DNA from: Candidatus Latescibacterota bacterium
GTDB taxonomy: Bacteria; Latescibacterota; UBA2968
DNA: 64,000 bases
Reading direction: 5' to 3'
Assembly: GCA_965204745.1 (NCBI GenBank)
Contig: OZ242010.1
Coordinates: forward strand, 1,728,001 to 1,792,000
The notes below the pieces were generated by a model. That model made no database searches. It was not told the DNA's origin and saw nothing but the letters and a program-made list of their open reading frames with translations. This document shows, piece by piece, positions 13,275 through 64,000 of this stretch (positions are counted from its first letter, which is position 1; each line of letters begins with the position of its first letter). Position numbers and translations under genes: made by a program.

Positions 13275-13604
13275 ATGCGAATTAAGCGTTGAATCTATCG
13301 CGTACTTGTCCTTTCTTGAGGGCGCAACCAATTTCACCCTCAAAGGAAGGAGCACGCGATGGATTGGCAAGATAAACGCATTCACTTGTATGTCTCTATT
13401 TGTCAGCAGTATGACCAAAGCATCTGTGGTTTTATACACAACGCATGAGCAAGAACGACACGCCGGCCTTCACAGATGAAGAAGTGCTGACGATCTCTTT
13501 GTTTGGGATCATGCAACAGCACACGCAGATCATGGCGATTGATACCTATACCAAGGATCATCTTTCCGACTGGTTTCCCAATCTGCCCACTTATGTAGGC
13601 TATC
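13275..13604 (+). pseudogene. Truncated, frameshifted IS982-family copy
   Basis: Begins ATGCGAATTAAG; highly similar to first ~330 bp of the element at 56494; 1-bp deletion (GACCAAAGCAT vs GACCAAAAGCAT). Confidence 0.9.
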
Positions 13605-51049: not shown

Positions 51050-52948
51050 ATGGATGCGAAAATGGGCACATTTTACATTACGACCCCGATTTACTACGTC
51101 AATGACGAACCCCACATCGGGCATGCGTACACGACGATTATGGCCGACGTGCTGGCGCGTTTTCACCGCTTGGCCGGCGACGAGGTGCTGTTTGTCACCG
51201 GCACGGATGAGCACGGGCAAAAAGTGGATGAGGCCGCCAAAAAACGCGCGTCGTCCCCACAGGCGCATGCCGACGAGATGGTGGTGAGGTTTCGGGATTT
51301 GTGGCAGGTGTTGAACATCTCCAACGACGATTTTATCCGCACGACCGAGGATCGACACAAGCGCGTCGTCAGCGATATTTTGCAGCGCATTTACGACGCG
51401 GGCGAGATTTACGCCGCTGATTACGAGGGTTGGTATTGCATTCCAGACGAGCGGTTTTGGACCGAGCGGGACCTGATAGCCGGCAATTGCCCGGACTGCG
51501 GGCGGCCCACGGTGAAAATATCCGAGAAGAATTACTTTTTCAGAATGAGCGCGTATCAGAGCTGGCTCATCGAGCACATCGAAACGCATCCGGAGTTTAT
51601 CCGCCCGGAAAAGCGGCGCAACGAGATTCTCGGGTTCTTGCGCCAACCCTTGGGCGATTTGTGCATTTCCCGGCCCAAGTCGCGCCTGGGATGGGGCATC
51701 CCGCTGCCATTTGACGCTGAGTACGTGTGCTACGTGTGGTTCGACGCGTTGATCAATTACATCACGGCGCCGGGCTATCTCGCGGATGGTGCGCGGTTTG
51801 AGCACTGGTGGCCCGCGTCTTGCCACTTGATCGGCAAAGACATTTTGACGACCCATTGCGTGTATTGGCCCACCATGCTCAAGGCGATGGGCGCGCCCTT
51901 GCCCGAAACCGTGATGGCGCACGGCTTTTGGCTCGTCGATGAGACCAAGATGGGAAAGTCGTTGGGCAATGCGGTGCGGCCCCTCGATCTGGCGGACAAA
52001 TACGGCGTAGATGCGTTTCGGTACTTTTTGGTGCGCGACATGACGCTGGGGCAAGACAGCGATTTTAGCGAGGTGGCTTTTGTGCAGCGGTACAATACCG
52101 AATTAGCCAATGAGTTGGGCAATTTGCTCAATCGGTCCGTGGTGATGGCTGCGCGCTATTTGGATGGGGTCATCCCGGGCATCGACCGCAACCACGCCGC
52201 GCTCGCCGCATTGAAAGCGCGAACCGCTGAGACCCTCGCCGCGGTGGCCGACGCCATCGACGCGCTGAATCCCAATGCCGCTTTGGACGCGATTTGGCGA
52301 TTGGTGCGCGAGGCCAACCGATTTGTCGAGGTGCAAGCGCCGTGGCATTTGGCGAAGGACGCGAGCAAACGGGCCGAGCTCGAGGTGACCATTTACGCGC
52401 TGCTGGAAACCATGCGGCAATTGTCGGTCTTGTTGTTCCCGGTGATCCCGTCAAAAGCGCGCGAGATTTGGCAACAACTCGGCGCGTCAGGTTCGCCCGA
52501 GGAGATCCATTTAGACGATTTGAAATCATGGGGAGGGCTGGATCCCGATGGCGAGGTCGCGCCCGGAAGTCCGGTTTTCCCGCGGATCGAGGAGGTCGAT
52601 GTGGCAACGGAAAAAGCAACAGAGGACTTGATTTCTTTTTCTGAATTTCAAAAGCTCGATTTGCGCGTGGCAAAAGTCGAAGCCGCGGATCGCGTGGCAG
52701 GCGCGGATCGCTTGTTGCGTTTGCAAATCCGCCTGGGCGATGAGCAACGCCAAATCGTCGCCGGCATCGCCGAACACTACGCGCCAGACGCACTCATCGG
52801 GCGGCAGATCGTGGTGGTCGCCAATTTGCAACCCGCGACCATCCGCGGCGTGGAATCCCAAGGCATGTTGCTGGCCGCCTCCGATGATCGCAACCTCGCA
52901 CTCATCGCACCCGACGGCGAGATCCGCGATGGCACGCAGGTTCGGTAG
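51050..52948 (+). CDS. metG: Methionine--tRNA ligase with C-terminal tRNA-binding domain
   Basis: FYITTPIYYVN, HIGH, GTDEHGQK, YVWFDAL, KMGKS, RGVESQGMLL. Confidence 0.97.
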   Translation: MDAKMGTFYITTPIYYVNDEPHIGHAYTTIMADVLARFHRLAGDEVLFVTGTDEHGQKVDEAAKKRASSPQAHADEMVVRFRDLWQVLNISNDDFIRTTEDRHKRVVSDILQRIYDAGEIYAADYEGWYCIPDERFWTERDLIAGNCPDCGRPTVKISEKNYFFRMSAYQSWLIEHIETHPEFIRPEKRRNEILGFLRQPLGDLCISRPKSRLGWGIPLPFDAEYVCYVWFDALINYITAPGYLADGARFEHWWPASCHLIGKDILTTHCVYWPTMLKAMGAPLPETVMAHGFWLVDETKMGKSLGNAVRPLDLADKYGVDAFRYFLVRDMTLGQDSDFSEVAFVQRYNTELANELGNLLNRSVVMAARYLDGVIPGIDRNHAALAALKARTAETLAAVADAIDALNPNAALDAIWRLVREANRFVEVQAPWHLAKDASKRAELEVTIYALLETMRQLSVLLFPVIPSKAREIWQQLGASGSPEEIHLDDLKSWGGLDPDGEVAPGSPVFPRIEEVDVATEKATEDLISFSEFQKLDLRVAKVEAADRVAGADRLLRLQIRLGDEQRQIVAGIAEHYAPDALIGRQIVVVANLQPATIRGVESQGMLLAASDDRNLALIAPDGEIRDGTQVR

Positions 52949-53137
52949 CAACGATGAGAGGAGCCACAAGAAACACAAAAAGCACAAAAAAGGGCGAGAG
53001 GGGAGGGAGAGAAACACAACGGTGAAGAAGGAATGGGAAGCAATCTACGGGAACAAATACGGTAAATTCGCACGCCCTGCTTGGAATCGCTAGGCAAGCG
53101 GCCGTAAGTATCTCTCCTCAAAAAAAGAGGGAATGAT

Positions 53138-53341
53138 ATGAAACTCAAAGTCGTTATTCACAAAGCAGAAGAAGGCGGGTACTGGGCAGAAGTGCCATCC
53201 CTTGAAGGCTGTGCGACCCAAGGCGAGACATTTGACGAACTCCTCGAAAATATTTACGAAGCGGTTGAGGGATGTTTGTCCGTCGATCTCGAAGATTTCA
53301 AAATCACGCCTCAAGATAAAGTGATGGAGATAGCGGTTTGA
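53138..53341 (+). CDS. hicB: HicB-family antitoxin
   Basis: [25 protein letters not shown]. Confidence 0.9.
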
Positions 53342-53880
53342 AATCTGTGACTGGGAGAGCGTTTTGCCGCTTATTGGAAAATCGGGACTGGCAATGCGAA
53401 TAAAGCGTTGCATCCATTTATTGGGACCTACCCCCCTGGCCCCCCTTCCTGTGAGGAAGGGGGGAATGGCGAGAGGTTGTGCGAGGGGTTTGGGTTTCCA
53501 GAGCGTGATCTATTCGCTCAAAGCCATCAGAACAGCTAGGGAGACAAACCTTCAAAAAGCCATGCGCTCCCCCTTTCCTTGTAGGAAAGGGGGCCGGGGG
53601 GATAGGTCCTACGAGGAAGGGGAAGAACCTCTCTCGTTGCGGAGAGGAGCCGGATGACTCGTCCATGTCTTTGGGCGATTGGTCTCGGCTTGCTTCCTAC
53701 TCGCTTTCTACTCTTAATTCGCATTGGCAATTGAAGCGTATCAAAGGCAGTCATCACATTTATGCTAGATCCGGAAATCCCGCTCGAATCTCAGTGCCCG
53801 TTCACAGCAATAAGACACTTAAGAAAGGCTTGCAAATACACTTTATGAAGATTGCTGGCATCGAGGAAAGTGAATTGTGA
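53338..53880 (+). pseudogene. hicA: HicA-family toxin split by a MITE
   Basis: Removing 53394-53729 gives [68 protein letters not shown]. Confidence 0.9.
53394..53724 (+). mobile_element. Non-autonomous IS982 derivative carrying a REP-doublet cassette
   Basis: Ends ATGCGAATAAAG / CTTAATTCGCAT; TGGCA direct repeats at 53389 and 53725; last ~65 bp match the IS982 3' end. Confidence 0.9.
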
Positions 53881-53931
53881 GGCTATCCCGAAATGAAGCG
53901 ACAACCGTCATCTTGCAATCTCGCCTTTCTT

Positions 53932-53954
53932 CCGCGTAATCCGCGTAATCCGCG
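53932..53954 (+). repeat. Nonamer repeat CCGCGTAAT x2.5
   Basis: CCGCGTAAT CCGCGTAAT CCGCG before tatD. Confidence 0.6.
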
Positions 53955-53968
53955 ATCAGGTTTTCCAC

Positions 53969-54730
53969 ATGCTTATCGACTCACACGCGCATTTGATGTT
54001 TTCGCAATTTAGCGGGGATTTGGACGAGGTGTTCGCTCGGGCACGCGCCGCGGGGGTGGGGCAGATCGTGAATGTGGGCACCAATTTGGAGACGAGCCGC
54101 GCTGCCGTCGCGCTTGCAAATGACCAGGTGTTTGCCACAGCGGGATTTCACCCGGCGGATTCGGCGAAAGCGGATGCGTCATCCCTCGAGAAATTGCCCG
54201 ATCTTTTGGCGCGTCAACAGGTCGTTGCAGTCGGGGAAACCGGGTTGGATTTCTATCGCGATTACGCGCCGCGCGATGTGCAGGAACGGGCGTTTCGGGC
54301 GCATATTCGGCTGGCGTGCGAAATGGGCCTGCCGCTGATCATCCACAGCCGCGCTGCCGAGACCCGCGTGTTGGACATCTTGGCAGAAGAAGGCGCGTCC
54401 CAAGTGGGCGGCGCAATGCACTGTTTTGGCGGGAACGCGGCAGAAGCCCGTCGCGCGGTTGATCTCGATTTTCATCTGGGCTTTGGCGGCATTGTCACGT
54501 TCAAAAACGCGCACGCATTGAAGGTCGCCTTGGGCGTGCCCGTCGATCGGTTGCTGTTGGAAACCGATTGTCCATTTCTGGCACCAGTGCCAAAACGCGG
54601 CAAGCGCAACGAGCCGGCATATGTGCGCTATGTCGCCGAGTGTTTGGCGCGTGCCGGACGCGGGGATTTTGACGCGGTCTGCCGGCAAACGACGCACAAT
54701 GCCCAGACCTTGTTTGGGTTGCCATCGTGA
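53969..54730 (+). CDS. tatD: TatD-family DNase
   Basis: IDSHAHL, GFHP, VGETGLD, IIHSR, HCF, LLETDCPFLAP, RNEP. Confidence 0.95.
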   Translation: MLIDSHAHLMFSQFSGDLDEVFARARAAGVGQIVNVGTNLETSRAAVALANDQVFATAGFHPADSAKADASSLEKLPDLLARQQVVAVGETGLDFYRDYAPRDVQERAFRAHIRLACEMGLPLIIHSRAAETRVLDILAEEGASQVGGAMHCFGGNAAEARRAVDLDFHLGFGGIVTFKNAHALKVALGVPVDRLLLETDCPFLAPVPKRGKRNEPAYVRYVAECLARAGRGDFDAVCRQTTHNAQTLFGLPS

Positions 54731-55491
54731 AATCAAAAAAAAAATTGAGCCAGCATTTTCTCGTCAATGCCGCGTCTGCTACACAGATCGTGGAAGCCGC
54801 GCAAATTGGCAACGAGGACTCGGTCGTAGAAATCGGCCCTGGCCGCGGCGCATTGACAAACCTCTTAGTCGCCCAAGCGAACCGGGTCATCGCCATTGAA
54901 ATCGACGAAAAACTGTGCGACCTGCTCGCCGCGCGATTCGGGTCGCAACTACAACTCGTCCGCAAAGACGTGCGCCAAGTCAATTTGCCCGCGCTCGTGG
55001 AATCCAAAGCAATTCTGGTGGGCAACTTGCCCTATCACCTCACGGGCGCGCTCATCAGGCAGATTACGGATGCGCGCAGGGTTTGGAAACGCGCTGTGAT
55101 CACAGTACAACGCGAAGTCGCACAGCGCATGATCGCACAGCCGGGTAGCAAAACCTACGGCGTGTTGTCTATCGTCACGCAGGTGCGATGCGCGGCAACC
55201 CGGTTATTTGACCTGCCGCCCACGCATTTTTTTCCCGCGCCCAAGGTGCATTCGTCCGTGTTAATGCTGGATTTTCAAGCCCCTTCTGCTTATGATATTG
55301 CAAACGAAAGGCGTTTGTTCGGCATCGTGCGCGCCGCATTTCAGCAACGGCGAAAAATGGTGCGAAATGCACTCGCCCATGTGGTAGATGCCGAGACGCT
55401 GATGGCGGCAGAGGTCGATGGTCGCGCCCGTCCGGAAACCATCTCTATCGCCGGCTATGAACGGATTTGCCGCGCAATGGCAATGCGATAA
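54727..55491 (+). CDS. rsmA: 16S rRNA dimethyltransferase RsmA/KsgA
   Basis: LSQHFL, VEIGPGRGALT, GNLPY, QREVA, FQQRRK, RPET. Confidence 0.95.
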   Translation: MKSKKKLSQHFLVNAASATQIVEAAQIGNEDSVVEIGPGRGALTNLLVAQANRVIAIEIDEKLCDLLAARFGSQLQLVRKDVRQVNLPALVESKAILVGNLPYHLTGALIRQITDARRVWKRAVITVQREVAQRMIAQPGSKTYGVLSIVTQVRCAATRLFDLPPTHFFPAPKVHSSVLMLDFQAPSAYDIANERRLFGIVRAAFQQRRKMVRNALAHVVDAETLMAAEVDGRARPETISIAGYERICRAMAMR

Positions 55492-56493
55492 CTTTTAGAG
55501 AAAAGAGAAAACCCTTGTTGAATATTCGCCTCTACTTGTTCGCAAATGTGATGATGCTGGCCTTGACCGCATGCGGGGGTGAGAAGTACACCTCAGCTTC
55601 GTTCCCCAAGCCTATTCCGGCAACTGAAGGAGCCATTACAGTGACCATCGCCGAGTTCGCGTCTTTGCCCGATATCAGCGACGGTCGAGTAGCGCCGATG
55701 ATGTTGCTCGTCGATGAACCGGGCACGGGCCGCTTGTTTGTGAACGACCAGTCTGGCGTATTGTACAGTGTCAGTTACGACGGGCGCACTGTTGTGCCCT
55801 TTCTCGATCACACTGACGCGCTATGGGGAATCAAGGTACGAAGAAAAAACTCGCATCCACAAGACATACGCGAGTTACGCGGATTTCATAGTTTCGCTTT
55901 CCACCCGCAGTTCGCCGAGGCGAGCACACCGGGGTTCGGTAGGTTCTACACCTTTTTAGAATCGCGCAACGAAACCGATGATCTACTCCTGCTGGAGTGG
56001 ACAGCGGCGGATCCCTACGCCGCGTTCTACGATGGCGGCCCGCCGAGGGAACTCATGCGGAAGCCATGTAAGGATCATTGCTCCGGTATGCTCGGCTTCA
56101 ATCCAAGTGCAACCCCCGGGGATACCGACTTTGGGCTACTTTACATGTCGATAGGTGATGGATTAAACTCAGGTGAAGTTAAACGCAGCCTTGTCTCTCA
56201 AGATCTGAGCGAGATATTCGGCAAGATACTCCGCATTGACCCGCTTGGGTCAAACAGCACCAATGGGCAGTACGGCATTCCCGCGGACAACCCATTTGTC
56301 TCAACGCGCAATGCGCTCGCCGAAATCTACGCCTACGGCATGCGCCACCCGCAACGCTTTGGCTGGGATGTACGAAACGGCAATCTGTTCGTCGCAGACA
56401 TCGGTGAGTACCAGGTTGAGGAGATCAGCCTCGTCCCTGCTGGAGCCAACCTCGGCTGGCCTAATTGGGAGGGGAGTTTTATGCCTGTTGACG

Positions 56494-57477
56494 ATGCGAA
56501 TTAAGAGTTGAATCCATCGCGTACTTGTCTTTTCTTGAGGGCTCAGTCATTTCACCCTTAAAGGAAGGAGCACGCGATGGATTGGCAAGATAAACTCATT
56601 CACTTGTATGTCTATATTTGTCAGCAGTATGACCAAAAGCATCTGTGGTTTTATACACAACGCATGAGCAATAACGATACGCCGACCTTCACAGATGAAG
56701 AAGTGCTGACGATCTATTTGTTTGGGATCATGCAACAGCACACGCAGATCAAGGCGATTTATACCTATACCAAGGATCATCTTTCCGACTGGTTTCCCCA
56801 TCTGCCCACTTATGCAGGCTATATCCAGCGGTTGAACCGCTTGTGTGTGGTCTTCGCGCCATTGATTGAACAAATCCAAAAGGACAGTCCCGCAACCGAT
56901 CTCTCTGAACACACCTACTTGGTGGATTCCATGCCGATTGTCATGGCACAATCGGCACGCAGCGGTCAGGCGTGTGTGGCCGAAGAACAACTGGCCAACA
57001 AAGGCCGCTGCGCTTCCAAAAAGATGTGGTATTACGGCACCAAACTGCACATTGTCGCACAAGACCGTGAGAACGGCCTCCCGAAAGCAGAGTACATCGG
57101 CTTGACAGGTGCAGCAGAGCATGACCTGACCGCTTTGCGACAAGTCTTACCCGTTTTGCGTGATGGACACCTCTACGGCGATAAAATCTACGCCGATCAG
57201 CCCTTAAAAGACACGCTTAGCAAACAGCAGAACCTGATCTTCGAGACGCCGGTGAAGCGCAAGAAGGGACAAGAAAGCCTGACCGAAGCCGAAAAAGACT
57301 ATTCTCGGGCGGTTTCGAGCATACGACAGCCGATTGAGGCCTTGTTCAGTTGGATTGAACGAAAGACGAACATCTCGATGGCGTCTCGGGTACGATCCTA
57401 TGAGGGCTTACTCGTTCATGTCTTTGGGCGATTGACCGCGGCTTGCTTCTTACTCGCTTTCTACTCTTAATTCGCAT
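56494..57477 (+). mobile_element. Complete IS982-family element (984 bp)
   Basis: TIR ATGCGAATTAAGAG/CTCTTAATTCGCAT; TGACG direct repeats at 56489 and 57478. Confidence 0.92.
56577..57470 (+). CDS. IS982-family DDE transposase
   Basis: FTDEEVLTI, LVDSMP, WYYGTKLH, YGDKIY, RQPIEALF. Confidence 0.9.
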   Translation: MDWQDKLIHLYVYICQQYDQKHLWFYTQRMSNNDTPTFTDEEVLTIYLFGIMQQHTQIKAIYTYTKDHLSDWFPHLPTYAGYIQRLNRLCVVFAPLIEQIQKDSPATDLSEHTYLVDSMPIVMAQSARSGQACVAEEQLANKGRCASKKMWYYGTKLHIVAQDRENGLPKAEYIGLTGAAEHDLTALRQVLPVLRDGHLYGDKIYADQPLKDTLSKQQNLIFETPVKRKKGQESLTEAEKDYSRAVSSIRQPIEALFSWIERKTNISMASRVRSYEGLLVHVFGRLTAACFLLAFYS

Positions 57478-58075
57478 TGACGATTGGCGCGACGACTGGC
57501 GCATCATCTTCAGACTGGGCGAGAATGTGGTTCGGGCGATCCGGGAAGGGCACTTTCGGATCCAGCGTCCTTATGATCACCATGTCTTCAGTTACCGTAG
57601 CGACCCCAGCATCACCTATCCCGTTGTCGAGTTTGACCACTATGACCCATTATTAGGAGGAGACAGAGTCGCCATAACCGGTGTCGTCGTTTACCGTCAC
57701 GCTGCGATTCCCCAACTCGAGAACACGGTGCTCTTTGGCGACTTGGTCAGCGGCGAGGTGTTCTATTTTTCTGCGGACGACCTGCCCGAAGGCGGTCAAG
57801 CCGCCATTCGCCGGGTGCGGTTTGAGCATCGGGGCGAAACAAAGACCCTGTTGCAGATGATCCAAGAGAAGAATATCGCGCAGGGACGCGAGCCTGCTCA
57901 CCGTGCGGATATGCGATTCGGCACAGGGCCGAATGGGCAGATATTCTTGCTCAACAAGCAAGACGGGATCATTCGCCGCCTCATGCCGTAGTACCTGGAC
58001 AAAAAAATGGCAGTGATTGCCTACATTTTTGCCGCGTAATGGCGACGCAATAACTTTTAACGAAAGGGAGTTTCG

Positions 58076-58996
58076 ATGCCCATTCCGCAATCGGATAAAA
58101 TTTGGTTCAATGGGAATTTCGTGAATTGGGACGATGCCAAAATTCATGTGCTATCCCATGTGATACACTACGGTTCGAGCGTTTTCGAGGGGATCCGCTG
58201 TTATCAAACGGCGCGAGGGCCGGCGTGTTTCAGGCTTGGGGATCACGTCAACAGGCTTTGCGATTCCGCCAAAATCTACCGCTTGGACATTCCCTACACG
58301 CACGCCCAGCTCGAAGACGCCATTTTGGAGACGATCCGCGTGAACCGGTTGCAAGCGTGTTACGTCCGCCCCGTGGCGTTTCGGGGGTTTGGCGAACTGG
58401 CCGTCAACCCGATGCCCTGCCCTGTGGAAGTGGTGATCGCGGTGTGGGAATGGGGCAAGTACCTCGGCCCCGAGGCATTGGAAAAAGGCGTCTCAGCGCG
58501 CTTCGCGTCGTGGAATCGCTTTGCCCCCAACACCATGCCGTCACTCGCCAAAGTGGCTGCGAATTACATGAACGCCCAGTTAATCAAAATGGAAGCCATG
58601 GCCGATGGGTACGCCGAAGGCATTGCCTTAGACACGCAGGGCTATGTGAGCGAAGGCAGCGGCGAGAACATCTTCATGGTGAAAAACGGGCGGATTTACA
58701 CGCCTTCCACCGAGTCGTCCATCCTGCCCGGCATCACGCGCCACACAGTGATCACACTCGCCCGCGCCTTGGGCTACTCCGTGACGACCCGCCCCATTCC
58801 CCGCGAATCCCTGTACATCGCAGACGAGGTATTTTTCACGGGTAGCGCGGCGGAAATCACCCCGGTCACGGCCATCGACCACATTCCAGTCGGCGGCGGT
58901 GCCCGCGGCGAAATCACGCACCAACTCCAAGAAGCCTTTTTCGAGGTCGTAGAAGGCAGAACAGAAGACAAACACGCCTGGCTGACGTATGTGTAA
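58076..58996 (+). CDS. ilvE: Branched-chain amino acid aminotransferase
   Basis: HYGSSVFEGIR, AKVAANY, EGSGENIF, LPGITR, ADEVFFTGSAAE. Confidence 0.96.
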   Translation: MPIPQSDKIWFNGNFVNWDDAKIHVLSHVIHYGSSVFEGIRCYQTARGPACFRLGDHVNRLCDSAKIYRLDIPYTHAQLEDAILETIRVNRLQACYVRPVAFRGFGELAVNPMPCPVEVVIAVWEWGKYLGPEALEKGVSARFASWNRFAPNTMPSLAKVAANYMNAQLIKMEAMADGYAEGIALDTQGYVSEGSGENIFMVKNGRIYTPSTESSILPGITRHTVITLARALGYSVTTRPIPRESLYIADEVFFTGSAAEITPVTAIDHIPVGGGARGEITHQLQEAFFEVVEGRTEDKHAWLTYV

Positions 58997-59072
58997 CCTG
59001 AAAATCGGCGATCACCGGCGAACTTTACCGCGCAATGACAATGCGATAACTTTTAGCGAAAGGAGAAAACCC

Positions 59073-60560
59073 ATGTCGCATACTCGCCTCTACCTGTTCG
59101 CAAATGTGATGATGCTGGCTTTGACCGCATGCGGGAGTGAGAAGTACTCTCGATATCCGTTCCCTGAGCCTATTCCGGCAACCGAAGGGGCCATTACAGT
59201 GACCACCGCCGAGTTCGCATCCCTGCCCGATATTGACGGTCAGGCGGCGTTGATGATGTTGCTCGTCGATGAGCCGGGCACGGGCCGCTTGTTTGTGAAC
59301 GACCTGTCCGGTGTATTGTACAGCGTCAGTTACGACGGGCGCACTGTTGTGCCCTATCTCGATCACACTGACGCGCTATGGGGACTCGGAGTCAGAAAAC
59401 CTATATTGGAAGCAACTGCTTACCAACCAAGGAGACGAAGAGGATTTCAGAGTTTCGCTTTCCACCCGCAGTTCGCCGAGGTTGGCGCACCGAGGTTCGG
59501 TAAGTTCTACACTTTAGTCGAATTACACAACGAAACCAAGTATCTATCCCTGCTGGAGTGGACAGCGGAGGATCCCTACGCTGCGTTCTACGATGGCGGC
59601 CCGCCGAGGGAAGTCATGCGGAGCGAGCGATTGCCGGGTGATCGTTACTCCGGTATGCTCGGCTTCAATCCAAGTGCAACCCCCGAGGATCCCGACTTTG
59701 GGCTACTTTACTGGTCGATAGGCGGTGGATTAAACGAAGTCTGGTCTCAAGATCTGAGCAATATGTTCGGCAAGATACTCCGCATTGACCCGCTTGGCTC
59801 AAATAGCACCAACGGGCAGTACGGCATTCCCGCGGATAACCCATTTGTCTCAACGCGCAATGCGCTCGCCGAAATCTACGCCTACGGCATGCGCCACCCG
59901 CAACGCTTTGGCTGGGACGTACGAAACGGCAACCTGTTCGTCGCAGACATCGGTGGGGAGTTTGTCGAGGAAATCAGCCTTGTCACTGCTGGAGCCAACC
60001 TCGGCTGGCCTATATGGAGGGGGAGTTTTCTACGTGGTGACGATTGGCGCGACGACTGGCGCATCGTCGTCAGACTGGGCGAGAATGTGGTTCGGGCGAT
60101 CCGGGAAGGGCACTTCCGGATCCACCGTCCTTATGATTACCATGTCATCGATTTGGACAATCCCCGTAGCGACGCCAGCTTCACCTATCCCGTTGTCGAG
60201 TTTGACCACAGGGACCCGCTGTGGGAAACTCAAAGCACTGCCATAACCGGTGTCGTCGTTTACCGTCACGCTGCGATTCCCCAACTCGAGAACACGGTGC
60301 TCTTTGGCGAATTGGTCAGCGGCGAGGTGTTCTATTTTTTTGCGGACGATCTGCCCGAAGGCGGTCAAGCCGCCATTCGCCGGGTGCGGTTTGAGCATCG
60401 GGGCGAAACAAAGACCCTGTTGCAGATGATCCAAGAGAAGAATATCGCGCAGGGACGCGAGCCTACTGACCGTGCGGATCTGCGATTCGGCACAGGGCCG
60501 AATGGGCAGATATTCTTGCTCAACAAGCAAGACGGGATCATTCGCCGCCTCATGCCGTAG
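59073..60560 (+). CDS. GSDH-fold beta-propeller lipoprotein copy 2
   Basis: LTAC lipobox; paralog of copy 1. Confidence 0.85.
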   Translation: MSHTRLYLFANVMMLALTACGSEKYSRYPFPEPIPATEGAITVTTAEFASLPDIDGQAALMMLLVDEPGTGRLFVNDLSGVLYSVSYDGRTVVPYLDHTDALWGLGVRKPILEATAYQPRRRRGFQSFAFHPQFAEVGAPRFGKFYTLVELHNETKYLSLLEWTAEDPYAAFYDGGPPREVMRSERLPGDRYSGMLGFNPSATPEDPDFGLLYWSIGGGLNEVWSQDLSNMFGKILRIDPLGSNSTNGQYGIPADNPFVSTRNALAEIYAYGMRHPQRFGWDVRNGNLFVADIGGEFVEEISLVTAGANLGWPIWRGSFLRGDDWRDDWRIVVRLGENVVRAIREGHFRIHRPYDYHVIDLDNPRSDASFTYPVVEFDHRDPLWETQSTAITGVVVYRHAAIPQLENTVLFGELVSGEVFYFFADDLPEGGQAAIRRVRFEHRGETKTLLQMIQEKNIAQGREPTDRADLRFGTGPNGQIFLLNKQDGIIRRLMP

Positions 60561-60688
60561 CACCTAAAAAAACAAACCGTTTAATACGACCAACTCTTGA
60601 AGGTGACTGGCGAAAAAATGGCAATGATTGCCTACATTTTTGCCGCGCAATGGCAATGCGATAACTTTTAGCAAAAGAAAGAAAACCC

Positions 60689-62260
60689 TTGTTGAATATT
60701 CGTCTCTACTTGTTAGCAAATATGATGATGGCGTGGTCGGCCTTGACCGTGTGCCTTTTGGAGCATCATATCTACATCCCCAAAGATCCGTCTGATGGTT
60801 ATAGGTTTGTCATCTCTCTTGTTAGATATTTATGCCCCCCCCCTCGCCAAGATCCGTTCCCTAAGGCTATTCCGGCAACCGAAGGGGCCATTACAGTGAA
60901 CATCGTCGAGTTCGCATCCCTGCCCGATATCAGCGACGGTCGGGTAGCGCCGATGATGTTGCTCGTCGATGAACCGGGCACGGGCCGCTTGTTTGTGAAC
61001 GACCAGTCCGGCGTATTGTACAGCATCAGTTACGACGGGCGCACTGTTGTGCCCTATCTCGATCACACTGACGCGCTATGGGGAATCGAGGTGCGAAGAA
61101 AAAACCTTTGGCCCAGAGACAAACGCGAGTTACGCGGGTTTCATAGTTTCGCCTTCCATCCGCAGTTCGCCGAGGCGGGCACACCGGGGTTCGGTAGGTT
61201 CTACACCTTTGTCGAATCGCGCAACGAAACCGATGATCTACTCCTGCTGGAGTGGACAGCGGCGGATCCCTACGCCGCGTTCTACGATGGCGGCCCGCCG
61301 AGGGAACTCATGCGGAAGCCATGTGTTAAGGATCATTGCTCTGGTATGCTCGGCTTCAATCCAAGTGCAACCCCCGGGGATACTGACTTTGGGCTACTTT
61401 ACATGTCGATAGGCGATGGATTAAACGCAGCCTGGTCTCAAGATCTGAGCAATCTATTTGGCAAGATACTCCGCATTGACCCGCTTGGGTCAAACAGCAC
61501 CAATGGGCAGTACGGCATTCCCGCGGACAACCCATTTGTCTCAGCGCGCAATGCGCTCGGCGAAATCTACGCCTACGGCATGCGCCACCCGCAACGCTTT
61601 GGCTGGGATGTACGAAACGGCAACCTGTTCGTCGCAGACATCGGTGAGTACCAGGTTGAGGAGATTAGCCTCGTCCCTGCTGGGGCCAACCTCGGCTGGC
61701 CTAATTGGGAGGGGAGTTTTCTGCTTTTTGACGACTGGCGCGACGACTGGCGCATCATCTTCAGACTGGTCAGAAATGTGGATTGGGCAATCCGGGGGGA
61801 ATGGCCCTGGGCCTTCGGAGATATCTCGCCTGAGGACCACCCTGTCTTGAGTTTGGACAATCTCCGTAGCGACGCCAGCATCACCTATCCCGTTGTCGAG
61901 TTTGACCACAAGGATCCGCTGTTGGGGAGAAGAAGAGTTGCTATAACCGGTGTCGTGGTTTACCGTCACGCTGCGATTCCCCAACTCGAGAACACGGTGC
62001 TCTTTGGCGACTTGGTCAGCGGCGAGGTGTTCTATTTTTCTGCGGACGACCTGCCCGAAGGTGGTCAAGCCGCCATTCGCCGGGTGCGGTTTGAGCATCG
62101 GGGCGAAACAAAGACCCTGTTGCAGATGATCCAAGAGATGAATATCGCGCAGGGACGCGAGCCTGCTCACCGTGCGGATATGCGATTCGGCACCGGGCCG
62201 AATGGGCAGATATTCTTGCTCAACAAGCAAGACGGGATCATTCGCCGCCTCATGCCGTAG
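60689..62260 (+). CDS. GSDH-fold beta-propeller protein copy 3, altered N-terminus
   Basis: Paralog; lipobox changed to LTVC with an extra N-terminal insert. Confidence 0.85.
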   Translation: MLNIRLYLLANMMMAWSALTVCLLEHHIYIPKDPSDGYRFVISLVRYLCPPPRQDPFPKAIPATEGAITVNIVEFASLPDISDGRVAPMMLLVDEPGTGRLFVNDQSGVLYSISYDGRTVVPYLDHTDALWGIEVRRKNLWPRDKRELRGFHSFAFHPQFAEAGTPGFGRFYTFVESRNETDDLLLLEWTAADPYAAFYDGGPPRELMRKPCVKDHCSGMLGFNPSATPGDTDFGLLYMSIGDGLNAAWSQDLSNLFGKILRIDPLGSNSTNGQYGIPADNPFVSARNALGEIYAYGMRHPQRFGWDVRNGNLFVADIGEYQVEEISLVPAGANLGWPNWEGSFLLFDDWRDDWRIIFRLVRNVDWAIRGEWPWAFGDISPEDHPVLSLDNLRSDASITYPVVEFDHKDPLLGRRRVAITGVVVYRHAAIPQLENTVLFGDLVSGEVFYFSADDLPEGGQAAIRRVRFEHRGETKTLLQMIQEMNIAQGREPAHRADMRFGTGPNGQIFLLNKQDGIIRRLMP

Positions 62261-62384
62261 TACCTGAAAAAAAATCGCTCAATGCGGCCTCCTCCTGAAG
62301 GCGAACAAAAAAAATGGCAGTGATTGCCTACATTTTTGCCGCACAATAGCAATGCGATAACTTTTAGCGAAAGGAAGAAAACCC

Positions 62385-63839
62385 TTGTTGAATATTCGCC
62401 TCTACCTGTTCGCAAATGTGATGATGCTGGCTTTGACCGCATGCGGTGGTGGGAGTGGGCGAGAAGATCTGTTCCCTGAGCCTATTCCAGCAACCGAAGG
62501 GGCCATTACAGTGAACATCGCCGAGTTCGCATCCCTGCCCGATATTGACGGTCAGGCGGCGTTGATGATGTTGCTCGTCGATGAACCGGGTACGGGTCGC
62601 TTGTTTGTGAACGACCAGTCTGGCGTATTGTACAGCGTCAGTTATGACGGGCGCACTGTTGTGCCCTATCTCGATCTTGACGCCTTGGGTAGCGCTGTTC
62701 CGACCATATTGCATAGTTTCGCTTTCCACCCGCAGTTCGCCGAGGCTGGCACTCCGGGGTTCGGCAAGTTCTACACCTTGGTCATATTCGAGACCCCCGT
62801 CGAAAAGCCCAACCGAACCATAATCTTGCATCAGTTGTCCATTCTGGAGTGGACAGCGGAGGATCCCTACGCCGCGTTCTACGATGGCGGCCCGCCGAGG
62901 GAAGTCATGCGGAAACCACCGGATATGTGGTCCGGTATGCTCGGTTTCAATCCAAGTGCAACCCCCGGGGATACCGACTTTGGGCTACTTTACATGTCGA
63001 TAGGCGTTGTATACAACAAAGACCGGGCACAAGACCTGAGCAATATACTCGGCAAGATACTCCGCATTGACCCCCTTGGGTCAAACAGCACCAACGGGCA
63101 GTACGGCATTCCCGCGGACAACCCATTTGTCTCAACGCGCAATGCGCTCGCCGAAATCTACGCCTACGGCATGCGCAACCCGCAACGCTTTGGCTGGGAT
63201 GTACGAAACGGCAACCTGTTCGTCGCAGACATCGGTAAACATCATGTTGAGGAGATCAACCTCGTCTCTGCTGGGGCCAACCTCGGCTGGCCTAATTGGG
63301 AGGGGAGTTTTCCTTGGGTTGACGACTGGCGCGACGACTGGCGCATCGTCGTCGGACTGGGCGAGAATGTGGTTCGGGCAATCCGGGAAGGGCACTTTCG
63401 GATCCAGCGTCCTTATGATCACCATGTTTTCAGTTTAGACAACCCCCGTAGCGACTCCAGCATCACCTATCCCGTTGTCGAGTTTGACCACCATGACCCA
63501 TTATTAGGAGAGAGAGTCGCCATAACCGGTGTCGTCGTTTACCGTCACGCTGCGATTCCCCAACTCGAGAACACGGTGCTCTTTGGCGACTTGGTCAGCG
63601 GCGAGGTGTTCTATTTTTCTGCGGACGACCTGCCCGAAGGCGGTCAAGCAGGCATTCGCCGGGTGCGGTTTGAGCATCGGGGCGAAACAAAGACCCTGTT
63701 GCAGATGATTCAAGAGAAGAATATCGCGCAGGGACGCGAGCCTGCTCACCGTGCGGATATGCGATTCGGCACCGGGCCGAATGGGCAGATATTCTTGCTC
63801 AACAAGCGAGATGGGATCATTCGCCGCCTCATGCCGTAG
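62385..63839 (+). CDS. GSDH-fold beta-propeller lipoprotein copy 4
   Basis: LTAC lipobox; YGMRNPQRF. Confidence 0.85.
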   Translation: MLNIRLYLFANVMMLALTACGGGSGREDLFPEPIPATEGAITVNIAEFASLPDIDGQAALMMLLVDEPGTGRLFVNDQSGVLYSVSYDGRTVVPYLDLDALGSAVPTILHSFAFHPQFAEAGTPGFGKFYTLVIFETPVEKPNRTIILHQLSILEWTAEDPYAAFYDGGPPREVMRKPPDMWSGMLGFNPSATPGDTDFGLLYMSIGVVYNKDRAQDLSNILGKILRIDPLGSNSTNGQYGIPADNPFVSTRNALAEIYAYGMRNPQRFGWDVRNGNLFVADIGKHHVEEINLVSAGANLGWPNWEGSFPWVDDWRDDWRIVVGLGENVVRAIREGHFRIQRPYDHHVFSLDNPRSDSSITYPVVEFDHHDPLLGERVAITGVVVYRHAAIPQLENTVLFGDLVSGEVFYFSADDLPEGGQAGIRRVRFEHRGETKTLLQMIQEKNIAQGREPAHRADMRFGTGPNGQIFLLNKRDGIIRRLMP

Positions 63840-63871
63840 CAGGTTCAACGACAAATAGAAAGCGAATGGCG

Positions 63872-64000
63872 ATGAAAAACAAAAAAATCGCTGTAATTGG
63901 CGCGGGCAACATGGGCGGCGCGTTGATGGCCGGATGGATTCGGTCCAAACAAATCGCCCCCGAAAACATCACCGCAGTCGATCTCATCGCCGACGTGTTG
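63872..64000 (+). CDS. proC: Pyrroline-5-carboxylate reductase, N-terminus (runs off window)
   Basis: MKNKKIAVIGAGNMGGALMAGW...APENITAVD. Confidence 0.8.
   Translation, partial: MKNKKIAVIGAGNMGGALMAGWIRSKQIAPENITAVDLIADVL

Follow-up and report, generated by a model that had tools for sequence, protein, structure and literature searches.

The GSDH/sGDH propeller is familiar from sugar oxidases that depend on a cofactor and, in animals, from the Hedgehog-interacting protein (HHIP), a Hedgehog decoy. GSDH-family enzymes, for instance Asd of E. coli, can work with externally supplied pyrroloquinoline quinone (PQQ), and the 4CD loop of soluble glucose dehydrogenase (sGDH) forms the dimer interface. 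Here, we describe an array of four propeller paralogs of the GSDH/sGDH type in a stretch of 64,000 nucleotides from a Candidatus Latescibacterota bacterium (assembly GCA_965204745.1, contig OZ242010.1, positions 1,728,001 to 1,792,000), which is referred to as the window. The paralogs are all encoded on the plus strand between window positions 55515 and 63839, copy 1 being present in two pieces. They belong to a known family and are not a new kind of system; judged from sequence comparison, the array would be a small repertoire of envelope-anchored propellers with differing ligand or substrate specificities, in which enzymes and binders are mixed, a reading to which we assign a probability of about 45%.

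In sGDH, the general base is probably His144, while Arg228 and Asn229 lie around the ketones of PQQ (PMC6881810). HHIP consists of the propeller, EGF repeats and an N-terminal cysteine-rich domain (CRD), has its ligand loop in blade 3 (PMC8660895) and itself retains the general-base His (PMC4133262). The fungal AA12 enzymes TrAA12 and CcPDH are eukaryotic and often fused to cytochrome or carbohydrate-binding module domains, and tandem diversified paralogs are not described in the available part of the literature on them.

The window copies differ from all of these. Compared with the soluble PQQ-dependent aldose and glucose dehydrogenases of Pyrobaculum (3A9G), Thermus (2ISM), E. coli (Asd/YliI, 2G8S) and Acinetobacter (sGDH, 1C9U), they are around 140 residues longer than the 340-residue enzymes, carry a putative lipobox instead of a plain signal peptide, have lost the catalytic His in copies 2 and 4, possess His in place of Asn229 in copies 1 to 3, contain a predicted 32-residue helix insert in the 4C-4D connection, and are tandem paralogs that differ on the pocket face. 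Core and bottom loops are nearly identical to those of a canonical family of around 470 residues, whose members, however, have neither the Cys lipobox nor the insert. Whereas HHIP is an animal protein with additional modules and a ligand loop in one blade, the window proteins show only the GSDH domain by Pfam and vary at many loops. The likeness to HHIP thus lies in the fold and the lost enzymology and not in membership, and a phylogenetic tree shows that HHIP is not the ancestor of the window clade. The copies and their principal segments are:

55515..56495, plus strand: copy 1, first 327 codons (5' part); lipobox LTAC at the end of a signal peptide, then blades 1 to 4; 74.3 bits with PF07995
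56076-56078, plus strand: His144-equivalent codon of copy 1, His (alignment)
57485..57991, plus strand: copy 1, 3' part, 168 codons and stop; remainder of the clade-specific insert, blades 4D to 6
59073..60560, plus strand: copy 2, ATG start, 495 codons plus stop; Arg at the His144 position (59643-59645), RHP, loop 1 at its longest
59373..59444, plus strand: variable loop 1 of copy 2, residues 101-124, blade 1D-2A connection (alignment)
59622..59651, plus strand: residues 184-193 of copy 2, the variable His loop between blades 2D and 3A; aligns to sGDH 139-148
59955..59963, plus strand: hypervariable triplet GEF of copy 2, residues 295-297, blade 4B-4C; aligns to sGDH Pro248-Ser250
60042..60137, plus strand: clade-specific 32-residue insert of copy 2, residues 324-355, starting DDWRDDWR; predicted helix in the 4C-4D connection, low model confidence
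60689..62260, plus strand: copy 3, TTG start, 523 codons plus stop; His (61334-61336) retained in CVKDHC, RHP, lipobox changed to LTVC and followed by 75 extra nucleotides
62385..63839, plus strand: copy 4, TTG start, 484 codons plus stop; Met at the His144 position (62925-62927), RNP, short loop 1, longer blade 2 B-C hairpin

Fold and predicted envelope anchor

A preliminary description of the window, which was made from its letters without database searches, had proposed four propellers of the GSDH fold, and this assignment is borne out by profile scores and structure predictions. Copies 1 to 4 exceed the cut-off of 25 bits of the Pfam family GSDH (PF07995) with 74.3 (5' part of copy 1), 82.1, 86.9 and 99.7 bits, and the matches cover only positions 125 to 222 or 223 of the profile, whose length is 332. 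The 3' part of copy 1 alone gave no Pfam match, and no further PF07995 match was found in the rest of the genome. With TIGR03606 (non_repeat_PQQ, the sGDH-B type), the copies reach 33.1 to 42.6 bits and thus fall outside this family, the cut-off of which is 434.55 bits. Copies 2 to 4 contain zero stops and zero frameshifts.

AlphaFold2 models were obtained for copy 2 (m9bffeabb933c; predicted local distance difference test score 77.7, predicted template modelling score 0.81, 84 aligned sequences) and copy 4 (mc07cc11ccfb0; 71.6, 0.76 and 32 sequences, respectively). Both models share a layout of 24 strands in six blades, with blade 6 closed by the N-terminal strand, and the predicted six-bladed beta-propeller can be superposed on solved GSDH/sGDH members. 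HHIP ties with the GSDH enzymes in structural score, and the best match of the family profile among PDB sequences is animal HHIP (E 7e-16) and not a bacterial enzyme. The C-terminal half gave no sequence alignment to any solved chain, so that the PQQ residues of blades 5 and 6 could not be mapped by sequence. The helix predicted for the 32-residue insert is amphipathic; the insert opens with a doubled DDWR (DDWRDDWR), and in the copy-3 type it varies as well.

LTAC is found at residues 17 to 20 of copies 1, 2 and 4, and copy 3 has LTVC and a 25-residue extra linker, as judged by eye against what we take to be the lipobox consensus, [LVI][ASTVI][GAS]C. Canonical relatives have no Cys at this place. 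A predicted envelope anchor is plausible for copies 1, 2 and 4. In copy 3, extra stretches of 6 and 75 nucleotides around and after the lipobox (60750-60830) give rise to LTVC and the linker; the same type of N-terminus is present in the database proteins P0004, P0011, P0012 and P0014, and this variant may change how the paralog is anchored.

Variation on the cofactor face

All four sets of loop strings quoted in the preliminary description were located in the translated copies. Columns were sorted into four classes, namely top (D-A and B-C loops), bottom (A-B and C-D loops), core (strands) and, set apart, the 4C-4D insert region, the faces being assigned from the DSSP strings of the AlphaFold2 models and a propeller topology rule, without coordinates. 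Among the four copies, 75 of 147 top-loop columns are variable, compared to 15 of 133 in the bottom loops, 23 of 145 in the core and 29 of 49 in the insert region. Loop 1 alone spans 11 to 27 residues. The same pattern is seen in 18 members of the clade to which the window copies belong: the mean column entropy is 0.91 for top, 0.27 for bottom, 0.20 for core and 0.85 for the insert region, whereas the values for 66 canonical sequences are 0.90, 0.77, 0.62 and 0.62, respectively. In these models, the variable loops would hence share one face formed by D-A and B-C loops and are not scattered, which answers a check that had been proposed together with the preliminary description.

The top face has also departed furthest from the canonical family. 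Retention was scored at those positions on which 90% or more of 17 canonical rows agree (81 on the top face, 169 elsewhere). Copy 2 retains 40 of the 81 top-face positions and 153 of the 169 others, copy 3 retains 41 and 156, and copy 4 retains 36 and 152 (Fisher p between 2e-12 and 3e-14). The ortholog of the nearest genome, a Candidatus Latescibacterota metagenome-assembled genome (L006, here G018) with a single copy between ilvE and proC, retains 47 and 149 (p = 2e-7). All three segments aligning with the active site of sGDH lie on the top face.

The rest of the propeller is under purifying selection. In comparisons with the G018 ortholog, the ratio of nonsynonymous to synonymous rates (dN/dS) is 0.32 to 0.35 for the whole gene (dS ~0.5), 0.21 to 0.29 for the core and 0.18 to 0.24 for the bottom loops; the neighbouring genes give 0.09 for ilvE (dS 0.52), 0.18 for proC (0.47) and 0.22 for metG (0.23). 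The scaffold is thus as constrained as neighbouring genes, which argues against plain decay. Between copies, dN and dS are 0.209 and 0.405 in the top loops, 0.031 and 0.119 in the bottom loops and 0.035 and 0.075 in the core, with whole-gene dN/dS ratios of 0.45 to 0.70.

The copies are mosaics, as had been suspected from shared segments. Of 38 parsimony-informative nucleotide sites, 20 group copies 1 and 3 against 2 and 4 (codon columns ~50-330), 10 group 1 and 4 against 2 and 3, clustered at columns ~390-430, and 8 group 1 and 2 against 3 and 4. Adjacent informative sites agree in 26 of 37 cases, compared to a mean of 13.9 after shuffling (p = 2e-4; 10,000 permutations). Furthermore, synonymous differences in codons with an invariant amino acid are found in 19 of 70 top-loop columns but only in 29 of 231 columns elsewhere (p = 0.005). 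Together, the clustered sites and the synonymous excess in the top loops fit gene conversion that homogenises the scaffold and leaves older, diverged islands in the pocket loops.

Two other explanations for the variation were rejected. There is no convincing dN/dS above 1, and thus no sign of positive selection, in any partition or pair; the sole structural partition above 1 is the 49-column insert region of copy 1 versus copy 2, with 2.49 and very few synonymous sites. The dN/dS comparison suggested with the preliminary description therefore confirmed constraint on the scaffold, but never placed the variable loops convincingly above 1. Ongoing hypermutation or another diversity-generating mechanism was rejected as well, since the differences comprise indels and all base changes and copy-specific pieces are identical across four studies; a reverse transcriptase was not searched for. 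A basic, polyanion-binding face is likewise not supported, the top loops having a median net charge of -1 for clade members and of -5 for canonical sequences, at a whole-protein isoelectric point of ~5.

Active site and competing readings

A phmmer alignment of copy 3 with sGDH of A. calcoaceticus (5min/1c9u) equates the His of DHCSG with His144, MRHPQ with Arg228-Asn229 and the triplet following DIG with Pro248-Ser250. At the place of His144, the His is present in copies 1 and 3 and replaced by Arg in copy 2 and by Met in copy 4; at that of Asn229, copies 1 to 3 have His and copy 4 has Asn; the Arg228 equivalent is Arg in all four. The alignment thereby confirms that the catalytic His is missing from copies 2 and 4 and that RNP reads RHP in copies 1 to 3. 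The more general claim of eroded catalytic motifs, however, stands only in part: among the 18 clade members, the general-base His is kept in 14, being absent from copy 2 and its identical database twin, copy 4 and P0007, and the Arg is kept in all 18. The canonical family has His in 65 and Asn in 63 of 66 sequences. The triplet after DIG takes at least 12 states in the 18 clade members, compared to QNI in the canonical family. The database protein P0002 has a copy-2-like loop yet retains the His, and the loss in copy 2 therefore looks recent.

In copies 1 (56067-56081, C-K-D-H-C) and 3 (61322-61339, C-V-K-D-H-C), the retained His lies between two cysteines. Most clade members with two Cys show this pattern, and none of the canonical family does (median of 0 Cys). 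The Cys pair could staple the old active centre by a disulfide or provide it with a new metal site.

Since the catalytic His/Arg pair is kept, copy 3, and copy 1 before its disruption, are probably still dehydrogenases with an altered pocket, whereas copies 2 and 4, which lost the general base, are probably non-catalytic binders or carry out other chemistry. Seen in this way, the idea of a repurposed binding repertoire agrees with the varied former cofactor face and with HHIP as a non-enzymatic precedent; to regard the whole array as pure binders, however, would overstate this, and altered enzymes are no less likely for some of the copies.

Several points weigh against a diversified repertoire of enzymes and binders. 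The faces were assigned from predicted secondary structure, and the 32-residue insert, which is absent from all 66 canonical sequences aligned, could not be placed on a face. The top-loop dN/dS is 0.39 to 0.53 compared with the G018 ortholog, and that of the variable loops is 0.28 to 0.72 between copies (pooled, 0.52), values which derive from five DNA sequences with uncertain codon alignment in the indel-rich loops and from six pooled pairs that are not independent. Diversifying selection is not demonstrated, and relaxed constraint on a pocket that has lost its job would give equal numbers. Copy-specific pieces are identical across four studies and the loops are therefore stable alleles without real-time change; moreover, one copy of four is already inactivated. 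Motif loss alone, including that of the His in copies 2 and 4, does not prove inactivity: more than 25% of fungal AA12 sequences have no general-base His (PMC6881810), and CcSDH is PQQ-dependent although several PQQ-binding residues are missing (PMC4133262). TrAA12, which has Asp at the place of Asn229, is still active (PMC6881810). For PQQ biosynthesis, pqqC (TIGR02111) gave no match in the genome, but the control of this search likewise gave none in any of 14 genomes, and pqqE (TIGR02109) gave only radical-SAM matches under the cut-off.

Among the alternatives, the one that survives best, although we regard it as unlikely, is that the whole clade has left catalysis and forms a pure binding repertoire of HHIP-like lipoprotein receptors for host or environmental ligands, to which paralogs and recombination would give variety. 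The His in 14 and the Arg in 18 of 18 members are hard to explain in this case unless the pocket still serves a purpose akin to its former one, but HHIP also keeps its His (PMC4133262), so that retention is not decisive. Against such receptors speak further the descent of the clade from bacterial relatives and not from HHIP, the lack of EGF or CRD modules by Pfam and a face with a net charge near zero and no obvious polyanion site. Still more doubtful is an analogy that goes one step further and regards the copies as a bacterial counterpart of HHIP, in which surface lipoprotein receptors of a sponge symbiont would have arisen from an sGDH-type propeller, their ligand face being diverse and reshuffled by segmental conversion and their scaffold homogenised. 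If true, this would represent a small recombining recognition repertoire on a quinoprotein fold.

It is improbable that all intact copies are working quinoprotein sugar dehydrogenases whose loops tune the substrate or are near-neutral and in which another residue replaces the His. The conserved fold and the many pocket positions kept, the invariant Arg228 equivalent, the purifying selection on the scaffold and the AA12 enzymes, which are often without His (PMC6881810), are in line with this possibility. However, the near-universal His and Asn of the canonical family suggest that these residues matter, copies 2 and 4 lost the His by different substitutions, at least 40 of 81 conserved face positions are gone, and the TIGR03606 scores of 33 to 43 bits stay far from 434.55. 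The least probable reading, that of acquired genes in decay, with a pocket drifting in a genome without PQQ supply, copies heading to loss and the insertion in copy 1 as first casualty, would fit the disruption of copy 1, the raised whole-gene and loop dN/dS (the latter still below 1) and the absence of the gene from 19 of 20 other genomes of the genus, but is at odds with copies 2 to 4 being free of stops and frameshifts and each having its own leader and ribosome-binding site, with a scaffold dN/dS of 0.18 to 0.29 at dS ~0.5 that equals that of the adjacent proC and metG, and with paralog types whose loops stay the same between contigs from four studies and recur in database proteins encoded on further contigs.

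Returning to the mixed repertoire, the array is a clear example from bacteria of a GSDH/sGDH scaffold of which only the cofactor face would have been rebuilt and then diversified among tandem copies, while a putative membrane anchor and a new predicted helix were added to the scaffold, which conversion would keep uniform. Should the copies differ in the ligands they bind or the sugars they oxidise, they would show in compact form, as an experiment of nature, how the pocket of an enzyme is retired or given a new specificity, and their specificities would hint at what this uncultured, sponge-associated member of the Latescibacterota perceives or uses as food. If the copies are inert, they are the record of an acquired enzyme decaying face-first. 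None of the papers searched combines PQQ-dependent sugar dehydrogenases with sponge symbionts, or pseudoenzymes with PQQ propellers; in the available part of a paper on sponge Latescibacterota that mentions PQQ, the term refers to PQQ repeats as eukaryote-like domains and not to the present family.

Relatives, repeat unit and the insertion in copy 1

A word-based search for relatives scored 8000 candidates, of which 4323 had E values of at most 0.001. Most of these matches belong to the canonical family, which is very large and highly conserved across phyla. Its members share 52 to 60% identity with the window copies over the full length, possess the motifs NHNGG, ADGGSGGDP, RNPQRF and DIGQNIVEE and, according to genome records, are found in Acidobacteriota, Gemmatimonadota, Binatota and Pseudomonadota. 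Source records label these proteins 'PQQ-dependent sugar dehydrogenase'. No characterised member was apparent from the names returned, and no conserved neighbour was found among 83 open reading frames (ORFs) at 14 loci, out of 95 ORFs at 16 loci, L010 and L096 being excluded as near-duplicates of L009. Around 15 database proteins with 67 to 86% identity form a subclade with the window copies and have six features in common with them: a putative lipobox with Cys, a loop 1 that is long and variable, a blade 2 that lacks a loop of 13 residues, HxSG for HNGG, RHP for RNP and the 32-residue DDWRDDWR insert.

The subclade is present in 1 of 20 other genomes of the genus and in 2 of the 168 Latescibacterota genomes searched, including the source genome; 13 more have only distant GSDH matches (E ~1e-21 to 1e-24). 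In the genome G001, the GSDH gene is absent and rsmA, ilvE and proC are directly contiguous. A tree of 41 rows, from which L057, L058, L062, L074 and L083 were left out as truncated or over-long ORF calls, unites the three intact window copies in one clade (support of 100 in the Shimodaira-Hasegawa-like approximate likelihood ratio test, SH-aLRT) with G018 as sister (99), nested in sequences of Acidobacteriota, Gemmatimonadota and Binatota. A single horizontal acquisition that preceded the separation of the two species, followed by tandem amplification here, is the most likely history, and the tree cannot date the duplications because conversion homogenises the paralogs. In the proposed course of events, the gene would have been gained between ilvE and proC in the common ancestor with the sister species. 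Leader, coding sequence and hairpin trailer would then have been multiplied together as one unit, each copy taking over the leader type of ilvE. The copies differ on the face with which known enzymes bind PQQ, calcium and sugar and which would have been rebuilt; the remaining propeller would have stayed under purifying selection, homogenised by gene conversion.

While the preliminary description was correct in counting four paralogs, it missed that copy 1 is split by an IS982-family insertion sequence (IS) and that ilvE lies between copies 1 and 2. The array is flanked by housekeeping genes, with metG, tatD and rsmA upstream and proC and a class-I glutamine amidotransferase gene downstream. 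The remaining features of the array are:

56496..57476, plus strand: IS982-family insertion sequence, 981 bp, splitting copy 1 after codon 327; transposase ORF 56577-57470, NF033520 147.8 bits (cut-off 130)
56488-56495 and 57477-57484: target duplication TTGACGAT, flanking the IS982-family element
58076..58996, plus strand: ilvE, branched-chain amino acid aminotransferase, 306 residues, NF005146 442.6 bits; not a member of the propeller family
55460-55514, 58022-58075, 59020-59072, 60633-60688 and 62329-62384, plus strand: shared leaders before copy 1, ilvE and copies 2, 3 and 4
58009..58021, 60620-60632 and 62316-62328, plus strand: GC hairpin GGCAGTGATTGCC followed by a T-run, a terminator-like trailer conserved in three units (after copies 1 to 3)

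DNA alignment shows that the leader of ~55 nucleotides consists of TTTG, 19 nucleotides, TAACTTTT, a purine-rich ribosome-binding site (AAAGAG or AAAGGAG) and the start codon. A genome search found it at five places only, all of them in the array. In the sister genome G018, the leader precedes ilvE but not the GSDH gene, whose upstream region differs; each GSDH copy has therefore acquired an ilvE-type leader. The layout TTTG...TAnnTTTx resembles what we take to be the promoter consensus of Bacteroidota, and if the leader is such a promoter, the array would be co-regulated with the branched-chain amino acid gene. A sigma-70 scan gave 2 sites (5.2 expected) and a terminator consensus scan gave 9 sites, compared to 9.8 expected from shuffles, so that the evidence for the hairpin is its conservation in three units. 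Rfam detected zero families at the gathering score in positions 52000-64000.

A metagenome scan for DNA of the close clade returned only relatives of ~50% identity. Eight sequencing runs contain at least half of the sampled words, and four of these, from one study, are labelled sponge metagenome, the other four having coded names. Contigs from four runs of four studies carry copy-specific pieces without differences; the copy 4 piece 62717-62890, for instance, is found in three. The paralog types are also seen again in other samples: among database proteins, P0009 matches copy 2 and P0012 matches copy 3, whereas P0004 is a mosaic of a copy-3 N-terminus, a copy-1 loop 1 and a C-terminal part of the copy-4 type; such recombined segments fit an exchange between paralogs within the population.

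The element in copy 1 is assigned to the IS982 family by its transposase, its inverted terminal repeats (GCGAATTAAGAG and CTCTTAATTCGC) and the duplicated target. Removal of the IS and one copy of the target joins the two pieces of copy 1 in frame. The genome contains 46 matches to the element, of which 15 are full-length, and at least five among the matches listed, including the insertion in copy 1, are 100% identical. The insertion is therefore recent: the element is highly active in this genome and copy 1 was recently knocked out, as judged from these matches. No contig of other samples linked 56495 to 57485, although contigs cannot show the absence of an IS-free site. One contig joint from 55493 to 59059 (side 30, depth 4.4) falls within the repeated leader and is probably a repeat artefact.

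Further traces of the element are found outside the array. A partial IS982-family copy lies at window positions 13277-13603, and ~340 bp in the spacer between metG and tatD (53389-53729) end in IS-like inverted repeats (TGGCAATGCGAATAAAGCGT and ACTCTTAATTCGCATTGGCA), so that this stretch looks like an IS derivative resembling a miniature inverted-repeat transposable element. The right IS end alone has many matches of 80 to 90 bp dispersed across the chromosome.

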